Of a stretch of 64,000 nucleotides of DNA, positions 3,751 to 35,570 are shown piece by piece. The position numbers were made by a program, and so were the translations under genes. Numbering within the stretch: the stretch's first letter is position 1; every line of letters starts with the position of its first letter. The notes under the pieces were generated by a model that did no database searches, was not told the DNA's origin, and saw nothing but the letters and a program-made list of their open reading frames with translations. Source of the stretch: Candidatus Moraniibacteriota bacterium. Lineage in GTDB: Bacteria; Patescibacteriota; Minisyncoccia; Moranbacterales; UBA1568. Location of the stretch: positions 23,545-87,544 of the forward strand of contig JBAXOD010000002.1 of assembly GCA_037133435.1 (NCBI GenBank), written 5' to 3'.

Positions 3751-3856
3751 ACTCCTAATTCTTTATTCTTTATTCATCATCTAACGATTGTCGAGGCGCT
3801 CGGAATCGCTCAGGCATTCGCTGGGCGTCCGGCGTATGTCGGACGAACCAGGGCGG

Positions 3857-4025
3857 GTCTACCTCCCCTGCGGAGCCACGACCGTCCACTGGATGGTCGG
3901 ACACGAATCTTGTCGGGGCACCCGGAATCGGACCGGGACTACCTCCCCTTCGGGGCCACGACCGTCCATCGGGACGGTCGGATAACGTTCTTGTCGGGGC
4001 ACCCGGAATCGGACCGGGACTACCT
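3857..4025. repeat. Two tandem ~84-bp units, each = tRNA-Pro 3' half (cttgtcggggcacccggaatcggaccgggactacct) plus a GC hairpin spacer
   Basis: Exact 36-bp copies at 3909-3944 and 3990-4025; flanking spacers ccacgaccgtcca...ggtcgga also repeated. Confidence 0.7.
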
Positions 4026-4064
4026 GCTCCCAAAGCAGACGTACTACCACTATACTATGCCCCG
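3994..4064 (-). tRNA. tRNA-Pro (anticodon TGG)
   Basis: Manual fold of reverse complement: acceptor CGGGGCA/TGCCCCG, anticodon stem TCTGC/GCAGG, loop TTTGGGA, T-arm CCCGG-TCCGATT-CCGGG. Confidence 0.8.
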
Positions 4065-4090: not shown

Positions 4091-4126
4091 CCCAAAGCAG
4101 ACGTACTACCACTATACTATGCCCCG
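4091..4126 (-). pseudogene. Orphan duplicate of tRNA-Pro(TGG) 5' half (through anticodon loop)
   Basis: cccaaagcagacgtactaccactatactatgccccg identical to 4029-4064 but lacks 3' half. Confidence 0.65.
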
Positions 4127-4369
4127 CCAAATAATTTCAATTTTCTCTTTACGGACGAGGCTCGCCCTGATGGGCGACCCGACAATGAACTCGTCCCCGA
4201 AGCAGGCGTACTACTGACATTCATATCTCTTCCCAGTCTACGGACTCTCCGGGAAAAAGCAATCCCGCCTCCTGAAAGAGGCGGGACGGCCCTATCTTTT
4301 ATTTCGTGCAGTACGGAACCCGCCAATGGAAAACCGTCCCTCCGACGGAATCCCGCGAATACTCGCGTA

Positions 4370-18994: not shown

Positions 18995-19648
18995 CTATTT
19001 TGTCACGAGAAACGCGTAATGATACGCCCCGACCGGGATATCGCGGATTTCCGTAAAGCCGATCTTTTCCAAAATCTGTTTCATATCCCCCGCGGAAATC
19101 CGTTTCCCCGTTTCCGGTCCGACCTTCCCCTCCGTTTCCGGATTCCATTCCATGATCAGTCCGTGTCCGCCGGGATGAAGCACCCGCGAGACCTCTCGCA
19201 AGATCACATCCTTCATATCGTTCTGAAAGAGCATGTCCTTGACGATGACCCAATCCACGCTCGCCGGAGCAAGCCCCGAACCGTTCTCCCGTTCCAGGTT
19301 GGCCCGCTTCGTCGTGATATTCCTGAGACCCAAGAGCTTGGCCTGACTCTCCATCGCCTCGAGCGCGGCCGGCAGGACGTCGAGCGCGATAACCTGCCCT
19401 TCTTCGCCGACCGCTCTCGAAAATTCCACGGAAAAATATCCTGCGCCGCACCCGAAATCGGCCACGGTCCCTTTCGGTGCGACCGGTAACGCCGCCACGA
19501 CAGCCTTCGGATCCACGAATGTCGGAGAAGAGAACATACTCGTTTCTATATCGGTATTATATTTGCCTGATTCCAATAAATATAGTACAACAATTGAAGG
19601 CGAAAAGAAAGAAGTTCCGGAAAGCTTCTGGAGCCGTTCGAGCTTCAT
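18995..19648 (-). CDS. Class I SAM-dependent methyltransferase
   Basis: Motif I VADFGCGAGYFS, motif post-I ALDV, 217 aa. Confidence 0.65.
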   Translation of the reverse strand: MKLERLQKLSGTSFFSPSIVVLYLLESGKYNTDIETSMFSSPTFVDPKAVVAALPVAPKGTVADFGCGAGYFSVEFSRAVGEEGQVIALDVLPAALEAMESQAKLLGLRNITTKRANLERENGSGLAPASVDWVIVKDMLFQNDMKDVILREVSRVLHPGGHGLIMEWNPETEGKVGPETGKRISAGDMKQILEKIGFTEIRDIPVGAYHYAFLVTK

Positions 19649-19744
19649 TAGCCTCCAAAGCTTCGAAAGAGAAGCTTCGAGAACCTTGGCAAGAGGTCGG
19701 GAACACGGTTAAAATGAGGAGCCGTTCCCGTTCAATGGCACTTG

Positions 19745-19899
19745 GAGCCTATCCGTTAGGAACATACCTCCTGCGCCTAAAATCTTCGGCGTACACGCGC
19801 GTACCCCTTGTCGTCTTATCCAGATAGGGCTCCGCGGGTTACCCGCCTTTCCACTCGAAGCTTATACGGCTCGTGACGGAGACCCTGACGGATAGGCTC
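19745..19899 (-). mobile_element. 155-bp MITE-like element copy 1 (inverted relative to copies 2 and 3)
   Basis: Terminal inverted repeats gagcctatccgttagg / cctgacggataggctc; >85% identical to 22579-22735 and 32646-32800 after reverse complement. Confidence 0.65.
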
Positions 19900-19987
19900 T
19901 TATTCTCCTCCGAGTGTTCCCTGTTTACTGTTTACTGTTTACTGTTCATTGTTGTCAGTTGTCAGTGGTTAGTTATCAATCAAATAC

Positions 19988-20049
19988 GGAGAGATGACCG
20001 AGTGGTTGAAGGTACCGCTCTCGAAAAGCGGCAGGCCCGAAAGGGCCTC
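19988..20049 (+). pseudogene. 62-nt 5' fragment of tRNA-Ser(CGA) (acceptor through first half of T-loop), exact duplicate of 20391-20452
   Basis: ggagagatgaccgagtggttgaaggtaccgctctcgaaaagcggcaggcccgaaagggcctcgagggttcg identical in both copies; diverges inside T-loop. Confidence 0.75.
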
Positions 20050-20122
20050 GAGGGTTCGTCCGGCATACGCCGGACGCCCCGCGCATGCGGGGCGAATCCC
20101 ACATTTAAGGAGAAGGCTGCAT

Positions 20123-20386
20123 ATGTTCTATGTCTATATCCTCAGAAGCAAGAAAGACAATGACTTCTATATCGGGTCAACCGGAGATTTAAAAAGAAGA
20201 ATGAAAGAACATAATCGCGGAGTAGTGGAATCAACAAGACACAGACGACCTCTTGAACTCCTATGCTATGAAGCGTACAACTATAAAGAAGAAGCTCAAG
20301 CGAGAGAGCGTTTTCTAAAAAGCAGTGACGGAAAGAAAGATTTACGGAAACGATTGACTCGCAGTTTGGAAAAAAAGGAAAAATAA
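20123..20386 (+). CDS. Small GIY-YIG nuclease-domain protein (YhbQ/UPF0213-like)
   Basis: MFYVYILRSKKDNDFYIGSTGDLKRRMKEHN = GIY-YIG motif; AAGGAG SD 8 nt upstream of ATG at 20123; 87 aa. Confidence 0.75.
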   Translation: MFYVYILRSKKDNDFYIGSTGDLKRRMKEHNRGVVESTRHRRPLELLCYEAYNYKEEAQARERFLKSSDGKKDLRKRLTRSLEKKEK

Positions 20387-20390
20387 GTAC

Positions 20391-20477
20391 GGAGAGATGA
20401 CCGAGTGGTTGAAGGTACCGCTCTCGAAAAGCGGCAGGCCCGAAAGGGCCTCGAGGGTTCGAATCCCTCTCTCTCCT
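20391..20477 (+). tRNA. tRNA-Ser (anticodon CGA)
   Basis: Acceptor GGAGAGA/TCTCTCC, anticodon loop CTCGAAA, long variable arm CAGGCCCGAAAGGGCCTC, T-arm GAGGG-TTCGAAT-CCCTC. Confidence 0.85.
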
Positions 20478-20486
20478 CACTGAAAG

Positions 20487-20523
20487 AAAATCAGGATCCC
20501 ATTTTGGGGTCCTGATTTTTTTC
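20487..20523 (+). terminator. Rho-independent terminator after tRNA-Ser
   Basis: aaaatcaggatcccattttggggtcctgattttttt. Confidence 0.65.
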
Positions 20524-20529
20524 GGTTTG

Positions 20530-20665
20530 AATGGGAAAAAGGGATTCGAAAGCCGGACTGCTAGCAGGCAGGAGGCGGGGTCGCGACCTCGAGCACGGCC
20601 TTCGGAGGCCGGACGCTCGAGAGTTGTGACCGAGTCCCTCCCTTTCCTCAAAAGCGAATGACCGT
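20530..20665 (+). ncRNA. Structured tRNA-Ser-derived element 1 (14-bp closing helix GGAAAAAGGGATTC/GAGTCCCTCCCTTTCC); candidate small RNA or pseudo-tRNA
   Basis: 3' end gagtccctccctttcctca resembles tRNA-Ser 3' end; sits between two terminators. Confidence 0.3.
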
Positions 20666-20706
20666 CCCGATCATATTGGGGCGGTTATTCGTTTCTTGTG
20701 AGATGG

Positions 20707-20790
20707 AAGAGGGATTCGAAGGGATATGGAAATGTGAACGATTTCACGTTTCCATGTCCCCGGCCCGCAGGGGAATCCCTCCCTTTCCTC
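20707..20790 (+). ncRNA. Structured tRNA-Ser-derived element 2 (closing helix GGAAGAGGGATTC/GAATCCCTCCCTTTCC, internal 13-bp hairpin ATGGAAATGTGAA/TTCACGTTTCCAT)
   Basis: Direct reading of complementary segments; immediately followed by terminator. Confidence 0.3.
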
Positions 20791-20796
20791 AACGGA

Positions 20797-20833
20797 AATC
20801 AAAAGACTCCTGAATGGGGTCTTTTGATTTTTG
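20797..20833 (+). terminator. Rho-independent terminator
   Basis: aaatcaaaagactcctgaatggggtcttttgattttt. Confidence 0.65.
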
Positions 20834-21030
20834 TGTGTTGTGTTAATGGATGGATTCGAAATTGCAGGCATCTCAGGAAATCCGGCATTTCATTTGTCGC
20901 ATAGCGTCTGTCTTTCCACCGAAATGGATTGCGTGTCAAAGGTACGGATGATACAGTAAGGATGTTTTCGGATAATTCGGAAGATACCGAACAGTACCAT
21001 TCGAAGAATCAGACAGCCAAACGCTCTCAT

Positions 21031-22593
21031 ATGAGGATATCTTTGGAAAGTATTTTCTATCGCGTCATCCTTCCTTTCATGTTTCTTGAGGGATTTCTCC
21101 TGAGAATCGGCAATCTCAGAAAAGGTTTCTGGATCGACGAGTATCTCACCATCGAAACCGCACAGAAACTGACGTTTTTCAATCATACTGACACGGTCGG
21201 TCTCAACCCTTATTACGTCGGCCTCCGTCTGGTCGCATACCTCTTCGGTACCGACGAGACCGCCGTACGGATCATTTCCGTCCTGTTCGGTCTTGCGTCG
21301 GCATTCATCCTTTTCCTGATCGGAAAAAAATATTTTCACGAACGCGTCGGGCTCATCTCATCCTGTATCTTTCTGCTTACTCCCTTAGGCATATCGCTCG
21401 GTCAGGAAGTACGGCCATATTCCATGCTCCTTTTCCTTTCCCTGTGCCAACTATTTTTCTTTCTGGAAATATTGCAGTCCGTCTCCGAAGGTAAGCGGGT
21501 GAAAAATATCCGATTCATGCACCTCTCCGTCCTTACCCTGCTGATCCTGTTCATCCACCTGTCATCGGTATTATTCCTCGTCTCCGAAATGATCGTCCTT
21601 TCGTTCATAACGATCATCGAAAAACGGTGGCCGACGGACGTCTTCAAATATTATCTCGCTTGTTTGTTCCCGATGTTCGCGTTCTTCGCCTGGTTCTATC
21701 GTGACATCCTTACAAAACTCGGATTTATCGTTTCGGACCGGAATTACATTACCGTCTATTCAAACAGCGGACGCTCTTTCGCCGATGTGATCGTTTTCAT
21801 CCAGAATATCTCAACGGGACTCATCCCGGAGAAGCCAAAGGAGAGCCTGCTGGTATTCCTCCTTGCGCTCATTCTGATCGGAGCATCCATCGGCATTTGC
21901 CATTCTTTCATACGACGCGCCACGATCGTAAACGCCCTCTTTGGAATAACGATTCTCCGGATCTGCATCGGGCTGTCGATGCATGACTTCATTCCGAGAC
22001 ACGCGTTCATATTGACCCCTCTTTTTTCACTCTTTCTCGGAATATCCCTCTACAACCTTTCAAAAGTTCGCAGGGTTCCAAAGGTGGTCATTTTTTGCGT
22101 GTACGGATTCTTCATTCTGTCCCTCGCATATCTTTCACTGATTTCGCAGAAAGCCGAGAAAGCCGATCCGGGGAGACAATGGGGGTCGGTCGCCGATTTC
22201 GTCGAACGAAACGCCGGACCGGAAAAAGCGGTCATCGTGGCAGTCCCCTATCTGAAAGGGATATTCACCCATTATTATCATGGAACGACTCCGATCATCA
22301 CTATGGATGATTACAAGGAAAAATCACGAAATACCCTCATAGAGAACAATGAAATCGGTGTCTCGTTCATAAATCAAGAGCTGACCGATGCGTTGATCGG
22401 CAAGAGTATCGGGTTTCGAGAAATTCTGGTCGTCAAAGACGTTATCGCCTTAGATTTGAGCGATGTGGACAAACGCTTCGATACGGCTTTAGCAAGTCGT
22501 TTCATCCGGATCGATACAACCTGTTTCCCGGCTTCAGCGAAAATCCTGTGCGTCGAACGCTATCGAAGAGCCGACCAAGAGCCTATCCGTTAG
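21031..22593 (+). CDS. GT-C fold membrane glycosyltransferase (ArnT/PMT-like)
   Basis: ~12 TM, GFWIDE in first loop, N-terminal hydrophobic domain followed by C-terminal soluble domain; start at MRISLES. Confidence 0.5.
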   Translation: MRISLESIFYRVILPFMFLEGFLLRIGNLRKGFWIDEYLTIETAQKLTFFNHTDTVGLNPYYVGLRLVAYLFGTDETAVRIISVLFGLASAFILFLIGKKYFHERVGLISSCIFLLTPLGISLGQEVRPYSMLLFLSLCQLFFFLEILQSVSEGKRVKNIRFMHLSVLTLLILFIHLSSVLFLVSEMIVLSFITIIEKRWPTDVFKYYLACLFPMFAFFAWFYRDILTKLGFIVSDRNYITVYSNSGRSFADVIVFIQNISTGLIPEKPKESLLVFLLALILIGASIGICHSFIRRATIVNALFGITILRICIGLSMHDFIPRHAFILTPLFSLFLGISLYNLSKVRRVPKVVIFCVYGFFILSLAYLSLISQKAEKADPGRQWGSVADFVERNAGPEKAVIVAVPYLKGIFTHYYHGTTPIITMDDYKEKSRNTLIENNEIGVSFINQELTDALIGKSIGFREILVVKDVIALDLSDVDKRFDTALASRFIRIDTTCFPASAKILCVERYRRADQEPIR

Positions 22594-22735
22594 GGTCTCC
22601 GTCACGAGCCGTACGATCTTCGAGCGGAAAGGCGGGTAACCAGCGGATCCCTCTCCGTAGATACGGCGACAAGGGGTACGCGCGTGTACGCCGAAGATCA
22701 TAGGCGCAGGAGGTATGTTCCTAACGGATAGGCTC
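22579..22735 (+). mobile_element. 155-bp MITE-like element copy 2
   Basis: gagcctatccgttagg...cctaacggataggctc; overlaps stop codon of upstream gene. Confidence 0.65.
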
Positions 22736-22940
22736 TCAGTAGATGATAACAAACCCCCGAGTCAATCGATTCGCGATCCATCTTGTCACTCCGGTTTCAT
22801 TCCGATATCGTGATTGTCTGCGTCGAGAGGCTCCGGGAGCATTCCATGGTATCATCAGTGGGATAGGAATACCGGTAACCGGATATCGGAACAAGACAAA
22901 AAATCATATACCGAACGGCAAAAAACCACAGACAGAACCT

Positions 22941-30865: not shown

Positions 30866-32640
30866 ACGAGAACGAATCGGAAACCGTACCGAAAGTGGCC
30901 ATTCCGCCGACCATCACCGTGAAGGCGTTTTCCGATACCCTCGGACTGCCCGTCGCGCAGGTAATGACGGAACTCATGAAAAACGGCATCTTCGCGACCA
31001 TCAACGAGGAGATCGATTTCGATACCGCGAGCATCATCGCGACCGACCTCGGCATGGAGGCGGTCCCGGCCATCGAATCCGGCGATGCTGATAAGCCGCT
31101 CTCGCTCGAGGACATGCTTGACATCTGCGCGAAAGAAAAGAACTCGGACAAGCGCCTCGAGCCACGCGCACCGATCGTCACGATTCTCGGACATGTCGAC
31201 CACGGCAAGACCACGCTCCTCGACACGATCCGCAAGGCGAGCGTCGCGACCGGGGAAGCGGGTGGCATCACACAACATCTCGGCACCTATCAGGTCAAGA
31301 AGCGCGGCAAACTCATCACGTTCATCGACACCCCCGGACACGAGGCGTTTTCCGCGATGCGCAAGCGCGGCGTCTCTATCGCCGACATCGCCATCCTCGT
31401 CGTCGCGGCCGATGACGGCGTCCAGAAGCAGACCAAGGAAGTCATCACGTACCTCAAGGAGCGCGGACTCCCCATCATCGTGGCCATCAACAAGATCGAC
31501 AAGCCGGACGCGAATATCATGCGCATCAAGCAGGATCTTGCCGAGAATGACATCCTCATCGAAGAATGGGGCGGGAAAATCCTGTGCTCCGAGATCAGCG
31601 CGAAACAGAACGTCGGCATCGATTCACTGCTCGAAAACATCCTCCTCGTCAACGAGGTGGAAGAATTTTCCGCCGACGCGAAGCGCAGCGGACTCGCGGT
31701 CATCCTCGAATCGCACCTCGACAAGCAGAAGGGCCCAGTCGCCACGAGCCTGGTCCGGACCGGCACCCTCAAGGTCGGTCAGGACGTGATCGCCGGATCG
31801 GTCTTCGGCCGTATCCGTCATATGGAAAACTACGCCGGCAAGACCGTCGAATCCGCCGGTCCCTCGACGCCGGTCATCATCTACGGCTTCAGCGATACTC
31901 CGAAGGTGAACGACGTCGTTTCGGTCGCCAGCGGCAAGGCATCGGCACGGGTCCGTTCCGAACGGGCCCAGACGACCGCTAAGACCCTTATCAGGGCCAA
32001 ATCCGAGGAAGAAGGTGTCGAAGGTCCGAAGCGGCTTTCCTTCGTCCTCAAGGCGGATGTGGAAGGCTCGCTCGAGGCGATCGAACAGATTCTCGGTACC
32101 ATCGTCCACGACGAAGTCGCGCTCGAGGAGATTTCCTCCGGGGTCGGAGCCATCACCGAATCCGACGTGAAGATGGCGGAGAGCGCGGGGGCGGTCATCT
32201 TCGGATTCAACGTGGAACCGACCGCGGTCGCCCGACGCATGGCCGAAAAGAGCGGCACGGCGATCGAGAGCTTCGGAATCATTTATAAACTCGTCGACCG
32301 GGCGAAGGAGCGGCTGTCCGAGTTATTGCCGCCGGAAACGATACGCACCGATCTCGGCACCCTGTCCGTCCTCGCGGTCTTCAAGACCGGCAAACGCGAC
32401 CAGATCGTCGGCGGACGCGTCGGTAATGGAAAACTCTTCAAAGGTACGAAAGTCGACATCCGCCGCAAGGACGAGGTCGTCGGCACCGGTATCATCGTCA
32501 ATCTCCAGCAGAACAAACAGAACGTCGAGGAGGTCGGGCAGGGAAACGAATGTGGCGTCGTCTTCGAAGGCAATGCGAAAATCGCGGATGGGGATACGCT
32601 TCTCGTCTATCGCGAGGAAACGAAGCGCCGGACGCTCTAG
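30862..32640 (+). CDS. infB: Translation initiation factor IF-2 (short form)
   Basis: [12 protein letters not shown] (G1), DTPGHEAF (G3), NKID (G4), C-terminal beta-barrels; 592 aa. Confidence 0.9.
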
Positions 32641-32645
32641 ACTTA

Positions 32646-32800
32646 GAGCCTATCCGTCAGGGTCTCCGTCACGAGCCGTACGAGCTTCGAGCGAAAAGGC
32701 GGGTAACTTGCGGAGCCCTATCGAGATAAGGCGACAAGGGGTACGCGCGTGTACGCCGAAGATCATAGGCGCAGGAGGTATGTTCCTAACGGATAGGCTC
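32646..32800 (+). mobile_element. 155-bp MITE-like element copy 3
   Basis: gagcctatccgtcagg...cctaacggataggctc immediately after infB stop. Confidence 0.65.
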
Positions 32801-33015: not shown

Positions 33016-34530
33016 ATGGATTCTTCCGTCATCCCCGCACCGGTCCTCTCCGTCCTCGATGCCCTGAAATATGCCGGGTATCAGGGGCAGATCGTCGGCG
33101 GATGCGCGCGCGACCTGTTTCTCGGACGCGAACCGAAGGACTGGGATATCACGACCGATGCGAAACCGGAGGAGACGCTTTCCGTCTTCCCGGACAGTTT
33201 CTATGAGAACGATTTCGGGACGGTCGGCGTAAAAGTCGAGCCGTTCCACAAGGAAGGCCGTCCGGACCGCGAACACGACGTGATAGAAGTGACGACCTAT
33301 CGGACCGAATCCGGCTATTCGGACATGCGTCGGCCTGATCAGGTCGAATTCGTCCTATCGCTGTCCGAAGACCTTTCCCGGCGCGATTTCACGATGAACG
33401 CGATCGCGCTTCAGGTCAACGATCCGTCCCCGTCGCATACGGACCGGACCATCGACGTCATCGATCCGTTCCATGGCCAGGAAGACATCAACCGAAAGAT
33501 CATCCGGACGGTCGGCAACGCCGAACAACGCTTCGGCGAGGATGCACTGCGCATGATGCGGGCGATACGTTTCTCCTCCGAACTGGGCTCACCGGCTACG
33601 GAAGAAAGCGGATGGACGATCGAGGAACCGACGCTTGCGGCGATAGGAAAACACTCGGAACTGATCGCTCACGTCTCGCAGGAACGCATCCGCGACGAAT
33701 TATCGCGGATTATCCTCTCGGAGCGTCCGGCTGAAGGGGTCGAGCTGCTCCGGAGTGTCGGGTTGCTGAGATATATCATTCCAGAACTCGAGGAAGGCGT
33801 GGGTATCGGACAAAACCTCCATCATGCCCTTACCGTATACGAGCACAATCTCGGTGCGCTGCGATACTGCCCGTCGCGCGTGCTCGAAGTCAGGCTTGCG
33901 GCGCTGCTGCACGATGTCGGCAAACCCCGATCGAAGCGCGGCGACGGCTACAAGTCGACGTTCTACAATCACGACCATATCGGGGCCCGGATGACCAAGG
34001 TGATACTCCAAAGGCTTCGCTACCCCGTGGCCGTCATCGACCGGGTCACCCTGCTCGTGGACAACCATCTCTTCTATTACAATGTTGGCGAAGTGACCGA
34101 AGCCTCGGTTCGTCGGCTCATCCGACGCGTCGGCCTCGGGAACATGCGCGATCTTATGTCCGTCCGGATCGCGGATCGGCTCGGGTCGGGCGTCCCCAAA
34201 GCCAAACCGTATAAGTTGCGTCACTTGGAATACATGATCGAGAAGGTCTCAAACGACCCGGTCTCCGTCAAAATGCTCAAGATAAACGGCACGGATCTCA
34301 TGAACGACCTCAAAATGACGCCCGGACCGAAGATCGGCGCCGTGCTCGATGTCCTCCTTTCCGAAGTGATCGAAGATCCGTCACGTAACATCCGCGAGTC
34401 ACTCCTGGTACGCGCGAAAGAACTCTTCGAAGAGGATCTTTCTTCCCTTCGCGACCGCGCGAAAGACGTCATCGAGGAAAAACGCGAACAAGACGATAAG
34501 GGAATCAAAAACCGTCACAAGGTGGCGTAG
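33016..34530 (+). CDS. cca: CCA-adding tRNA nucleotidyltransferase with HD domain
   Basis: GGCARDLFLGREPKDWDITTD Pol-beta NTase motif; LLHDVGKP HD motif; 504 aa. Confidence 0.85.
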   Translation: MDSSVIPAPVLSVLDALKYAGYQGQIVGGCARDLFLGREPKDWDITTDAKPEETLSVFPDSFYENDFGTVGVKVEPFHKEGRPDREHDVIEVTTYRTESGYSDMRRPDQVEFVLSLSEDLSRRDFTMNAIALQVNDPSPSHTDRTIDVIDPFHGQEDINRKIIRTVGNAEQRFGEDALRMMRAIRFSSELGSPATEESGWTIEEPTLAAIGKHSELIAHVSQERIRDELSRIILSERPAEGVELLRSVGLLRYIIPELEEGVGIGQNLHHALTVYEHNLGALRYCPSRVLEVRLAALLHDVGKPRSKRGDGYKSTFYNHDHIGARMTKVILQRLRYPVAVIDRVTLLVDNHLFYYNVGEVTEASVRRLIRRVGLGNMRDLMSVRIADRLGSGVPKAKPYKLRHLEYMIEKVSNDPVSVKMLKINGTDLMNDLKMTPGPKIGAVLDVLLSEVIEDPSRNIRESLLVRAKELFEEDLSSLRDRAKDVIEEKREQDDKGIKNRHKVA

Positions 34531-34817: not shown

Positions 34818-34888
34818 CGGAGTGTGGTATAGTGGTATTACGCACGATTCGGGTTCGTGTAATCCGGGTTCGATTCCCGGCACTCCGA
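34818..34888 (+). tRNA. tRNA-Pro (anticodon CGG)
   Basis: Acceptor CGGAGTG/CACTCCG, anticodon stem CACGA/TCGTG, loop TTCGGGT, T-arm CCGGG-TTCGATT-CCCGG. Confidence 0.75.
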
Positions 34889-35026
34889 CAAAATAGCACC
34901 GGAAATATACGGTTCTACGGGTTTACGAAGTATCCGGCGCATGCCGGACGATTATAGATTTCTATCCGGCTACCTCATATCCACGCGACAAGCATACCGT
35001 GGTTTCCCGGTACTCCGACGAATCAG

Positions 35027-35382: not shown

Positions 35383-35472
35383 GCCGAGGTGGCGCCCGCC
35401 CGCAACGCTTCGCGTAGCGATGCGGGCAGGAAACTGGTAGACGCACCAGGTTTAGGTCCTGGCGGGAGCAAG
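35383..35472 (+). pseudogene. Partial tRNA-Leu copy: acceptor+D-stem, 36-nt GC hairpin inserted in D-loop, anticodon arm, no T-arm
   Basis: gccgaggtggcg[cccgcccgcaacgcttcgcgtagcgatgcgggcagg]aaactggtagacgcaccaggtttaggtcctggcgggagcaag vs intact copy 12 nt downstream. Confidence 0.7.
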
Positions 35473-35483
35473 AAACGTATATT

Positions 35484-35570
35484 GCCGAGGTGGCGAAATT
35501 GGTAGACGCACCAGGTTTAGGTCCTGGCGGGAGCAATCCCTTGGGAGTTCGAGTCTCCCCTTCGGCACCA
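35484..35570 (+). tRNA. tRNA-Leu (anticodon TAG), CCA encoded
   Basis: Acceptor GCCGAGG, anticodon loop TTTAGGT, long variable arm, T-arm GGGAG-TTCGAGT-CTCCC, 3' ACCA. Confidence 0.85.

Follow-up and report, generated by a model that had tools for sequence, protein, structure and literature searches.

Phages T4 and T6 carry, among their tRNA genes, a free-standing gene for SegB, a GIY-YIG endonuclease of about 220 amino acids (aa) with a C-terminal DNA-binding region. SegB recognizes the sequence GGTTCRANTCC, which is the T-arm motif, in tRNA genes and leaves 2-nucleotide (nt) 3′ overhangs (PMC2330249). The enzyme is needed for the tandem amplification of a tRNA-Tyr plus segB unit, which proceeds by homologous recombination and exploits microhomology that the tRNA's 5′ end shares with segB's 3′ end (PMC13096335). 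Homologues of SegB are enriched in the vicinity of tRNAs belonging to many isotypes (PMC13096335), and the enzyme promotes the inheritance of itself and of its flanks. A small GIY-YIG gene in a comparable setting is the subject of this report. It lies in a 64,000-nt stretch of contig JBAXOD010000002.1 from a Candidatus Moraniibacteriota bacterium (the window, whose positions are used throughout), between a truncated copy of tRNA-Ser(CGA) and the intact gene. We regard it as reasonably probable that the 403-base-pair (bp) block in question is the resident copy of a selfish, homing-type cassette from a family that lives in tRNA genes. By analogy with SegB, the element is best read as a homing cassette built on a free-standing GIY-YIG gene.

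The parallel has limits. Unlike phage SegB, the cassette protein comprises only 87 aa, consists of the catalytic domain alone, is encoded on a chromosome and falls into the UPF0213/Slx1 clade; moreover, neither T-loop inserts made of hairpins nor truncated copies of the tRNA 5′ part that follow the host tRNA are described for SegB loci. Because neither its architecture nor its profile score fits, the protein is not a member of the SegB family. The nearest report concerns the candidate phyla radiation (CPR), where GIY-YIG open reading frames (ORFs) occur in non-intron insertions of rRNA genes, at the tops or bases of stem-loops, with no tRNA case reported (PMC11270868). Those insertions share with the cassette the CPR hosts and the location of GIY-YIG ORFs in structured-RNA genes outside group I or II introns. 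However, they lie within the rRNA gene proper, from whose RNA they are presumably removed, whereas here the interrupted copy is dead and the gene has been regenerated by duplication. A mobile endonuclease ORF associated with duplication of a gene fragment was reportedly found by Paquin, Laforest and Lang in 1994 in the atp6 gene of Allomyces macrogynus. As reported, that case resembles ours in that a free-standing endonuclease ORF resides in an essential gene, with the duplicated segment keeping one copy intact and leaving a pseudo-fragment; it differs in involving a mitochondrial protein gene and duplication of a foreign 3′ end, with neither a hairpin module nor a tRNA.

A repeat search identified a 77-nt direct repeat present in two copies (19982-20058 and 20385-20461), 403 nt apart from start to start and identical at 76 of 77 positions. 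A near-exact repeat of this length cannot have arisen by chance. Each copy is made of a 6-nt leader (AAATAC upstream, AAGTAC downstream) and of nt 1-71 of tRNA-Ser(CGA), ending with GGTTCG in the T-loop. The intact tRNA-Ser(CGA), identified by ARAGORN at 20391-20478 (plus strand), scores 57.1 bits with Rfam. The same arrangement is found, unchanged, in an independent assembly (L001; L numbers designate related loci compared with the window). The initial annotation correctly recognized a duplicate of the 5′ part of tRNA-Ser starting at 19988 and the 403-nt spacing, but gave the duplicate as 62 nt long; tRNA-Ser being a class II tRNA with a long variable arm, the middle of the T-loop falls at nt 71, hence the miscount. 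The break inside the T-loop (GGTTCG/AATCC) was placed correctly, and no 3′ exon follows: 6-8 nt of T-loop and T-stem continue past the break, and the 3′ strand of the acceptor is absent.

The locus can be followed from left to right on the plus strand. The native upstream flank of the tRNA gene (19950-19981; TGTTGTCAGTTGTCAGT...TATCAATC) aligns with the flank of the intact tRNA in L099 and L100, two loci free of the GIY-YIG gene. This segment likely corresponds to the tRNA promoter region, judging from a TTGTCA-16 nt-TATCAA arrangement read by eye; a sigma-70 promoter scan did not recover this candidate. Next comes the upstream repeat copy (19982-20058), a displaced 5′ fragment composed of leader and tRNA nt 1-71. 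Two features overlooked in the initial annotation follow: a 36-nt double hairpin (hereafter hp-hp; 20059-20094, no strand assigned) and the octamer AATCCCAC (20095-20102), a remnant of the 3′ half of the T-loop and the 3′ strand of the T-stem. A ribosome-binding site, AAGGAG (20107-20112), stands 10 nt before the ATG of the GIY-YIG ORF (20123-20386), which thus has its own site for translation, as originally noted. The downstream repeat copy (20385-20461) overlaps the ORF stop codon and continues with GTAC and nt 1-71 of the intact tRNA. A terminator-like hairpin with a T-run (20484-20527), detected as an inverted repeat and kept in the GIY-free locus L099, closes the unit. No terminator was found between the two repeat copies or between ORF and tRNA, and the ORF therefore appears to lie inside the transcription unit of the tRNA; from the sequence, the intact tRNA is probably transcribed through the cassette from a promoter upstream of 19982. 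Since a complete tRNA directly follows the ORF stop, host function is kept. In short, the cassette splits the tRNA-Ser(CGA) gene at TCGA, leaving the native promoter-side flank and the 5′ part upstream as a dead fragment; within the 403-bp block, hp-hp and AATCCCAC come first, then a short leader with the GIY-YIG ORF, and last a further copy of leader and tRNA nt 1-71.

Comparison with relatives lacking the cassette, a check that the initial annotation had recommended, revealed empty sites. Eighty metagenomic loci were fetched through the neighbouring methyltransferase gene, and 12 of them keep a divergent tRNA-Ser(CGA). The GIY-YIG ORF is absent from 11 of these 12, the only occupied one being L105 (46% identity). 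In L099, L101 and L115, a tRNA-Ser(CGA) identical to that of the window at 87 of 88 positions lies in the same flanks without the 403-bp block; L099 has both the upstream flank of the window (GTTGTCAGTTGTCAGT...) and the downstream terminator. In the window it is the truncated copy that this native flank adjoins, which is what entry of the cassette into the gene would be expected to produce. Another case is provided by tRNA-Trp, which harbors a second cassette in L019 and L020 and is naive in the close relative L022, where it has the same neighbours (rpmG-Trp-Glu). Relatives thus have both occupied and empty alleles of one site, as looked for in a homing gene, at tRNA-Ser(CGA) as well as at tRNA-Trp. 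Such a patchy distribution requires gains or losses.

The family extends well beyond this locus. A scan of one genome per species confirmed at least 570 relatives, and 80 loci were kept. Association with tRNA genes was counted for 90 ORFs in 82 loci. In 53 of the 90, a tRNA on the same strand starts between -39 and +30 nt from the ORF stop; the chance expectation for so tight a downstream position is estimated at about 0.2% per gene. Sixteen tRNA species are involved: Ser (four anticodons), Val (two), Trp, Tyr, Met, Pro, Gln, Thr, Gly, Phe, Asn and His. For 16 more ORFs, a tRNA is found no farther than 200 nt upstream. Hosts among the loci listed include many CPR lineages, Syntrophaceae/Smithella, Omnitrophota and others, and the same module occurs in Moranbacteria (L005-L018). 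In the usual layout, the ORF is preceded by a copy of the 5′ part of the tRNA that starts at -11 to +1 and ends in a loop, followed by one to three GC hairpins, 4-12 nt more of tRNA, and finally the leader and ATG. The break falls in the T-loop (nt 71) in Ser and Tyr tRNAs of CPR bacteria, in the anticodon loop (nt 32-37) in Ser, Trp and Val tRNAs of Syntrophaceae, and in the D-loop (nt 15-25) in Met, Phe, His, Asn and Val tRNAs. When the proteins are ordered by neighbour joining, clades follow the tRNA type. The nearest genome relative of the window protein (L016, 84% identity) sits at tRNA-Ser(GGA), and relatives with 77% identity sit at tRNA-Tyr, which indicates that switching among class II tRNAs has occurred. 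Tandem units are present in L032, L053, L039 and L115. The view of the locus as a mobile cassette that regenerates its target, rather than an intron, is thus supported: it agrees with the empty sites, the occupation of 16 tRNA species in several phyla, the absence of any Rfam intron and the missing 3′ exon.

Two observations made in the course of this survey concern more remote positions. In L095 (1568-1944), one member lies 57 nt downstream of the gene for tmRNA, which also bears a T-arm. In L060, L063, L066, L072, L073 and L080 (around positions 1750-2000), members of a distant GIY-YIG subfamily (54-58% identity) have no tRNA after the ORF; an intact tRNA-Leu or tRNA-Phe precedes them by 153-185 nt, and a conserved, apparently structured spacer (TGATATTCG...CGAATATCAGTC...) fills the gap. 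Carriage by phages was also considered and rejected, as a single weak relative (44% identity) was found among 2.9 million viral contigs.

The catalytic domain spans the entire 87-aa protein. It matches the Pfam GIY-YIG profile PF01541 at positions 1-74 of 78 with 64.9 bits (cutoff 22.6; E=8.5e-18), bearing out the original call. Across 35 relatives, Y5, Y16, G18, H30 and E62 are invariant and R26 is conserved in at least 90%; the GIY-YIG catalytic residues are intact. The AlphaFold2 model (pLDDT 91.1) shows the element order E-E-H-H-E-H-H, matching the three-stranded sheet and flanking helices of the GIY-YIG fold. Foldseek ranked the UPF0213 protein BH0048 (1zg2) and Slx1 chains best, with the I-TevI catalytic domain lower, and phmmer against the Protein Data Bank (PDB) returned 1zg2 (6.3e-7), 1ywl (1.7e-4) and then Slx1. 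These closest similarities and the lack of an extra DNA-binding domain place the predicted protein, by sequence and model, in the UPF0213/YhbQ-Slx1 clade and not among intron-type or UvrC-type members; UPF0213/YhbQ proteins (BH0048, 1zg2; EF2693, 1ywl) and the Slx1 domain have the same small GIY-YIG core. Slx1 requires Slx4 and carries an extra C-terminal domain, a zinc finger, that is absent from the cassette protein. The titles of PDB entries 6seh and 7cq4 describe Slx1 as a nuclease that acts structure-specifically on branched DNA, in keeping with a hairpin or a three-way junction as substrate; the cassette protein may, by analogy, have a structure-specific activity as well. Among orthologues, the nonsynonymous divergence (dN) is 0.17-0.35 while synonymous sites (dS) are saturated, indicating that the ORF is under purifying selection; dN/dS, being mostly not computable, was used qualitatively. 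The ORF is the sole family member in the window. An identical protein is annotated in a Candidatus Moraniibacteriota metagenome-assembled genome (MAG), and the nearest relatives come from Moranbacteria and other CPR groups.

The upstream copy has the hp-hp module inserted in its T-loop, at the palindrome TCGA. The module consists of hp1 (TCCGGC-ATAC-GCCGGA, 20059-20076) and hp2 (CCCCGC-GCAT-GCGGGG, 20077-20094), each followed by CG. Twenty hp-hp segments were aligned for a covariation test. The two-hairpin model leaves 92% of positions paired, with compensatory changes in 9 of 14 pairs, as compared to only 39-50% pairing in slid controls. On four of five measures the observed values were reached by none of 500 shuffles; the fifth (extra pair types) was reached by 41. 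The alternative of one long palindrome fared worse (82% versus 92% paired, with a compensatory count reached by 173 of 500 shuffles), although this test revealed that the loops, ATNC and GNAT, are mutually reverse-complementary, making the unit dyad-symmetric. A covariance model built on hp-hp matches the window module at 20053-20099 with 74 bits, finds matches on both strands and hits 76 locations in the window and 83 loci; within the window, matches occur solely beside tRNA genes. Stem mismatches of the G.T and A.C types are equally frequent (17:17), showing no sense-strand bias and hence no sign of selection on a sense-strand RNA. Together with the mutually reverse-complementary loops, this disfavours a role of the hairpins at the RNA level. 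Folding predicts a fully paired three-way junction made of the T-stem, hp1 and hp2 (GGGTTCG-hp-hp-CGAATCCC), in which GGGTTCG pairs with CGAATCC(C) owing to the palindromic nature of TTCGAA. Rfam, at gathering and E-value thresholds, contains no family matching hp-hp, the leader or the elements downstream of the tRNA. Most likely, the dyad-symmetric hp-hp is a cis-acting site at the DNA level, serving either as a binding site or branch substrate for the nuclease or as a disruption that shields the upstream copy. In the upstream fragment TCGA is split by hp-hp, but the T-loop of the regenerated tRNA stays intact.

The sequences on either side of hp-hp differ in origin. The octamer AATCCCAC follows hp-hp in the window, L005, L013/L014 and L105 alike, whatever the tRNAs of these loci read (AATCCCTC, AATCTCTC, AATCCCAC, AATCCTCC), and so belongs to the cassette rather than to the host tRNA. 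Unlike AATCCCAC, the 5′ copies match the tRNA of their own genome. In most genomes the two repeat copies are identical even though the dS of the ORF is saturated, which implies that conversion homogenizes the repeat or that re-insertion renews it; exceptions are L005 (6 differences) and L051 (about 20 differences). A model in which the cassette brings along its own tRNA 5′ part (transduction) was discarded, as it misfits copies that are mostly identical and host-specific; L051 and L005 do show occasional foreign alleles.

A mechanism can be proposed along these lines, with SegB as the precedent for nuclease cutting and homing. The 87-aa UPF0213/Slx1-like nuclease would cut tRNA-gene DNA at loop-coding sites, with the cut at TCGA predicted to be staggered by 2 nt, as for a GIY-YIG enzyme. 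Such a stagger fits the CG repeated on both sides of every hairpin: the junctions can be read as TT(CG)-hp1-CG-hp2-(CG)AA, that is, as an insertion at TCGA accompanied by a 2-nt CG duplication, a reading that would also fit the anticodon loop of Ser(CGA) (CTCGAAA) and a tRNA-Val (ACTCG/TTT). Recombinational repair from an occupied allele would then copy the cassette into empty alleles. As the target persists in the regenerated tRNA, successive rounds of cutting and of repair from one copy to the other would preserve their identity; occasionally, recutting and repair would yield tandem arrays, deletions and ORF-less derivatives, including the debris found at all five tRNA genes of the window. 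One may speculate that the Slx1-like fold and the branched hp-hp junction denote structure-specific recognition. Possibly related to such events, closed cycles of the 403-bp unit, 100% identical to 19988-20390, were found in three assemblies. L002, L003 and L004 are 544-nt metagenome contigs representing circular permutations of the unit plus a 141-nt overlap; they contain a junction (ORF end-tRNA 1-71-hp-hp) that is absent from the linear locus. The cycles are suggestive of tandem arrays or excised circles, or else of a MEGAHIT artefact.

Several observations do not sit well with a homing cassette. The closed cycles could be a de Bruijn artefact, produced by MEGAHIT tip clipping at k<74 and carried to k=141. 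Members in L026 and L023 lie between two intact tRNAs without hairpins, while some others follow an intact tRNA, from which a structured spacer of a different kind separates them. The CG duplication is absent from anticodon-loop insertions in Ser(TGA). In distant Moranbacteria (L005-L012), the cassette occupies the same methyltransferase/SBP synteny as in the window, despite only 51-59% identity of the methyltransferase and 72 of 88 identical tRNA positions; it can therefore persist vertically for long. The protein has a catalytic domain with no evident DNA-binding module. The intact tRNA copy retains the presumed target, so that an occupied allele is not immune in the classical sense. Finally, standard homing alone does not yield a duplication that is specific to the host, 20-77 nt long and delimited by the 5′ end of the tRNA.

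The strongest competitor holds that the hairpin units are the true mobile entities, palindromes of the repetitive extragenic palindromic (REP) or miniature inverted-repeat transposable element (MITE) type that enter tRNA loop-coding sites and survive by virtue of the rescuing duplication, with the GIY-YIG gene as a captured trans-acting nuclease or a passenger. We judge this unlikely, though worth serious attention. REP/REPIN doublets are short GC-rich inverted hairpins present in many copies, some flanking a single linked nuclease gene, the REP-associated tyrosine transposase (RAYT). However, RAYTs belong to the HUH enzymes, and REPINs lie between genes, with no specificity for tRNAs; here, a GIY-YIG nuclease is found at tRNA loop-coding positions. 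What gives this explanation weight is the abundance of ORF-less units. Those combining a tRNA fragment with hairpins outnumber the ORF-bearing ones and flank all five tRNA genes of the window: each of these genes has partial copies nearby, several of them interrupted by hairpins, and only the copy at tRNA-Ser holds an ORF. In GIY-free relatives (L099, L101, L111 and L115), ORF-less units lie upstream of tRNA-Ser and comprise tRNA nt 1-21, two other hairpins, AAGGTAC and about 45 nt; L115 has several of them in tandem. The hp-hp module also occurs downstream of tRNAs in 3′ fragments (GGTTCG-hp-hp-AATCC...acceptor-CCA), as three tandem 62-nt units in L039 and in L026, L034, L041, L053 and further loci. 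Hairpins number one to three per unit, each bounded by CG, and some ORFs (L026, L023) have none. Set against this, hp-hp and ORF are linked across phyla in the same order and with the same AATCCCAC remnant, and ORF clades follow the tRNA type. Furthermore, the hairpins of ORF-less units fall into families with different sequences, which gives no support to a single trans-acting enzyme. The two explanations overlap, as a homing family may have autonomous and non-autonomous members, and the hairpin-based one does not exclude the cassette.

The notion of a fixed arrangement that benefits the host fares much worse, and we consider it improbable. It would make the protein a YhbQ-like housekeeping nuclease co-transcribed with tRNA-Ser, and the truncated tRNA and hairpins a structured mRNA leader involved in processing, stability or regulation. 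The initial annotation anticipated that GIY-free spacers in relatives would imply ancient synteny and such a housekeeping role. Spacer units of this kind do exist, but they are ORF-less products of one and the same process, differing in hairpins and break points, and do not bespeak housekeeping. The synteny maintained between the window and L005 lineages despite saturated ORF dS, the purifying selection on the ORF, the absence of a terminator between ORF and tRNA and the strong folding of the leader (z = -5.2) would all suit a beneficial gene. Yet the gene is missing from closer relatives that have the same locus; its protein family occurs at 16 different tRNAs, in tandem copies and with 3′ fragments; stems without G.U bias and dyad-symmetric loops speak against an RNA role; and the upstream copy follows the host tRNA instead of a conserved leader sequence.

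Even less credible, and in our view very improbable, is that the repeat is what remains of an att site, tRNA-Ser having served for the attachment of a prophage or an integrase-mediated island. Integration classically takes place at tRNA genes, and such islands are flanked by partial copies of the tRNA. Elements with tRNA-targeting tyrosine integrases cross over in the T-loop or anticodon loop, regenerate the tRNA and accumulate partial copies in arrays, and the initial annotation had drawn an analogy between such integrases and the T-loop break. The analogy fails on anatomical grounds. Integrase elements measure kilobases, encode an integrase and duplicate the 3′ part of the tRNA; the insert here measures 403 bp, encodes a single protein of 87 aa and lacks an integrase, and what is duplicated, upstream, is the 5′ part, as is the rule for ORF-bearing units. 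The near absence of the family from viral contigs, noted above, points in the same direction. Lastly, a group I, archaeal-type or other tRNA intron with a homing endonuclease ORF, suggested by the position of the ORF after a tRNA 5′ part interrupted in a loop and by a weak NCBIfam match to group I intron endonucleases (TIGR01453; 28.1 bits where the cutoff is 56.05, restricted to positions 4-33 of the 215 in the profile), can for practical purposes be dismissed, as Rfam detects only tRNA and no ribozyme or other family in the region, no acceptor 3′ strand follows the first copy and a complete, uninterrupted tRNA gene lies downstream.

A broader proposal is that the family represents an undescribed class of prokaryotic mobile element, with autonomous members (hp-hp plus a minimal Slx1-like GIY-YIG gene) and ORF-less hairpin members. 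Insertion at loop-coding positions would proceed through structure-specific cleavage of folded or branched tRNA-gene DNA, and a long duplication from the 5′ or 3′ end of the tRNA to the loop would regenerate the gene, leaving most tRNA genes of CPR and of some other bacteria decorated and their alleles turned over. In this full form the proposal is tentative, and we would sooner bet against it; that the element forms a distinct class of some kind has a substantial chance of being correct. The literature searched, in which subscription journals are scantily covered, contained no prior description of tRNA-associated UPF0213-type cassettes and assigned neither function nor genomic behaviour to bacterial UPF0213 proteins. 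Not found there, and apparently undescribed, are the use of a UPF0213-type enzyme, the presence of its gene on chromosomes of CPR and other bacteria, dyad hairpins with covarying stems at TCGA, a host-specific 5′ (or 3′) duplication that regenerates the tRNA, and the ORF-less derivatives. If the interpretation is correct, minimal nuclease cassettes parasitise tRNA genes in the small genomes of CPR bacteria and in some Syntrophaceae and Omnitrophota without destroying these genes, leaving hairpin-interrupted tRNA fragments on both sides of many of them. This would provide a biological role for uncharacterised UPF0213/YhbQ-type GIY-YIG proteins, carry over to cellular chromosomes what SegB exemplifies in phages (targeting of the T-arm and tandem amplification driven by a nuclease) and explain tRNA-flanking repeats that can mislead tRNA annotation and MAG assembly. 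Biochemists would, in addition, gain a nuclease of only 87 aa together with a defined DNA motif that is structured.

Past the terminator, the window contains two additional elements, both of which terminate in GAATCCCTCCCTTTCCTCA. The first (20537-20651, plus strand), identified through repeats and comparison with relatives, has an end resembling a tRNA 3′ end (GAGTCCCTCCCTTTCCTCA), and its acceptor 3′ strand, CCTTTCC, is that of another tRNA-Ser(CGA) allele, as in L100, L098 and L005. The second (20707-20792, plus strand), also identified through repeats, includes an inverted piece of T-arm, hairpins and the 3′ fragment GAATCCCTCCCTTTCCTCA. Fragments of the latter kind are likewise found downstream of the tRNA in L098 and L100. 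As the acceptor strand of GAATCCCTCCCTTTCCTCA is that of the L100, L098 and L005 allele, a past replacement of the tRNA allele is indicated.

The remaining tRNA genes of the window are flanked as follows. On the minus strand, a second hp-hp (3802-3849, 51.5 bits with the covariance model) interrupts the T-loop of a 3′ tRNA fragment without an ORF, in the locus 3790-3950. It is part of a 3′-fragment array downstream of tRNA-Pro(TGG) (3993-4064), behind a tandem fragment (nt 40-72, 3912-3944); a 5′ fragment (nt 1-36) lies 26 nt upstream of the gene, and the locus also includes 4091-4126 and 4196-4214. A pseudo-copy of tRNA-Leu(TAG), also devoid of an ORF (35383-35471), is composed of nt 1-12, a 35-nt hairpin in the D-loop (CCCGCCCGCAACGCTTCGCGTAGCGATGCGGGCAGG) and nt 12-53, and stops 12 nt short of the intact gene (35484-35570). 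The segment after tRNA-Pro(CGG) (34818-34889), at 34920-35019, has a single hairpin (TCCGGCGCATGCCGGACG) and a 3′-end fragment (35004-35019); weaker matches to the hp-hp model occur near this gene. After tRNA-Gly(TCC), three weak 3′-end fragments (ATTTCCATCACCCGC...), each preceded by a hairpin, are found on the minus strand (2339-2629); they score 12-14, with a chance probability of about 6% each.

Two other repeats were noticed. One, about 160 nt long, has three copies 90-92% identical (19745-19899, 22577-22735 and 32639-32800) with 16-nt inverted termini (GAGCCTATCCGTTAGG...CCTAACGGATAGGCTC). The copies lie in sense orientation just upstream of genes: a methyltransferase gene at 19648 (minus strand), an oxidoreductase-like ORF at 22743 (plus) and an ORF at 33016 (plus). 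An E-value scan of 19600-22900, covering two copies, gave no Rfam match, and the repeat was not found in the loci of relatives; it could be a MITE or a shared leader. The other, an element of about 130 nt (...TCTCAAATCTCATGTCGAGCTGTAAAT...GGAGGGCTAC...), recurs beside tRNA-Ser in Moranbacteria (L101, L102 and L115) and has the short motif GGAGSSCTATCTGGATAA in common with the 160-nt repeat of the window.

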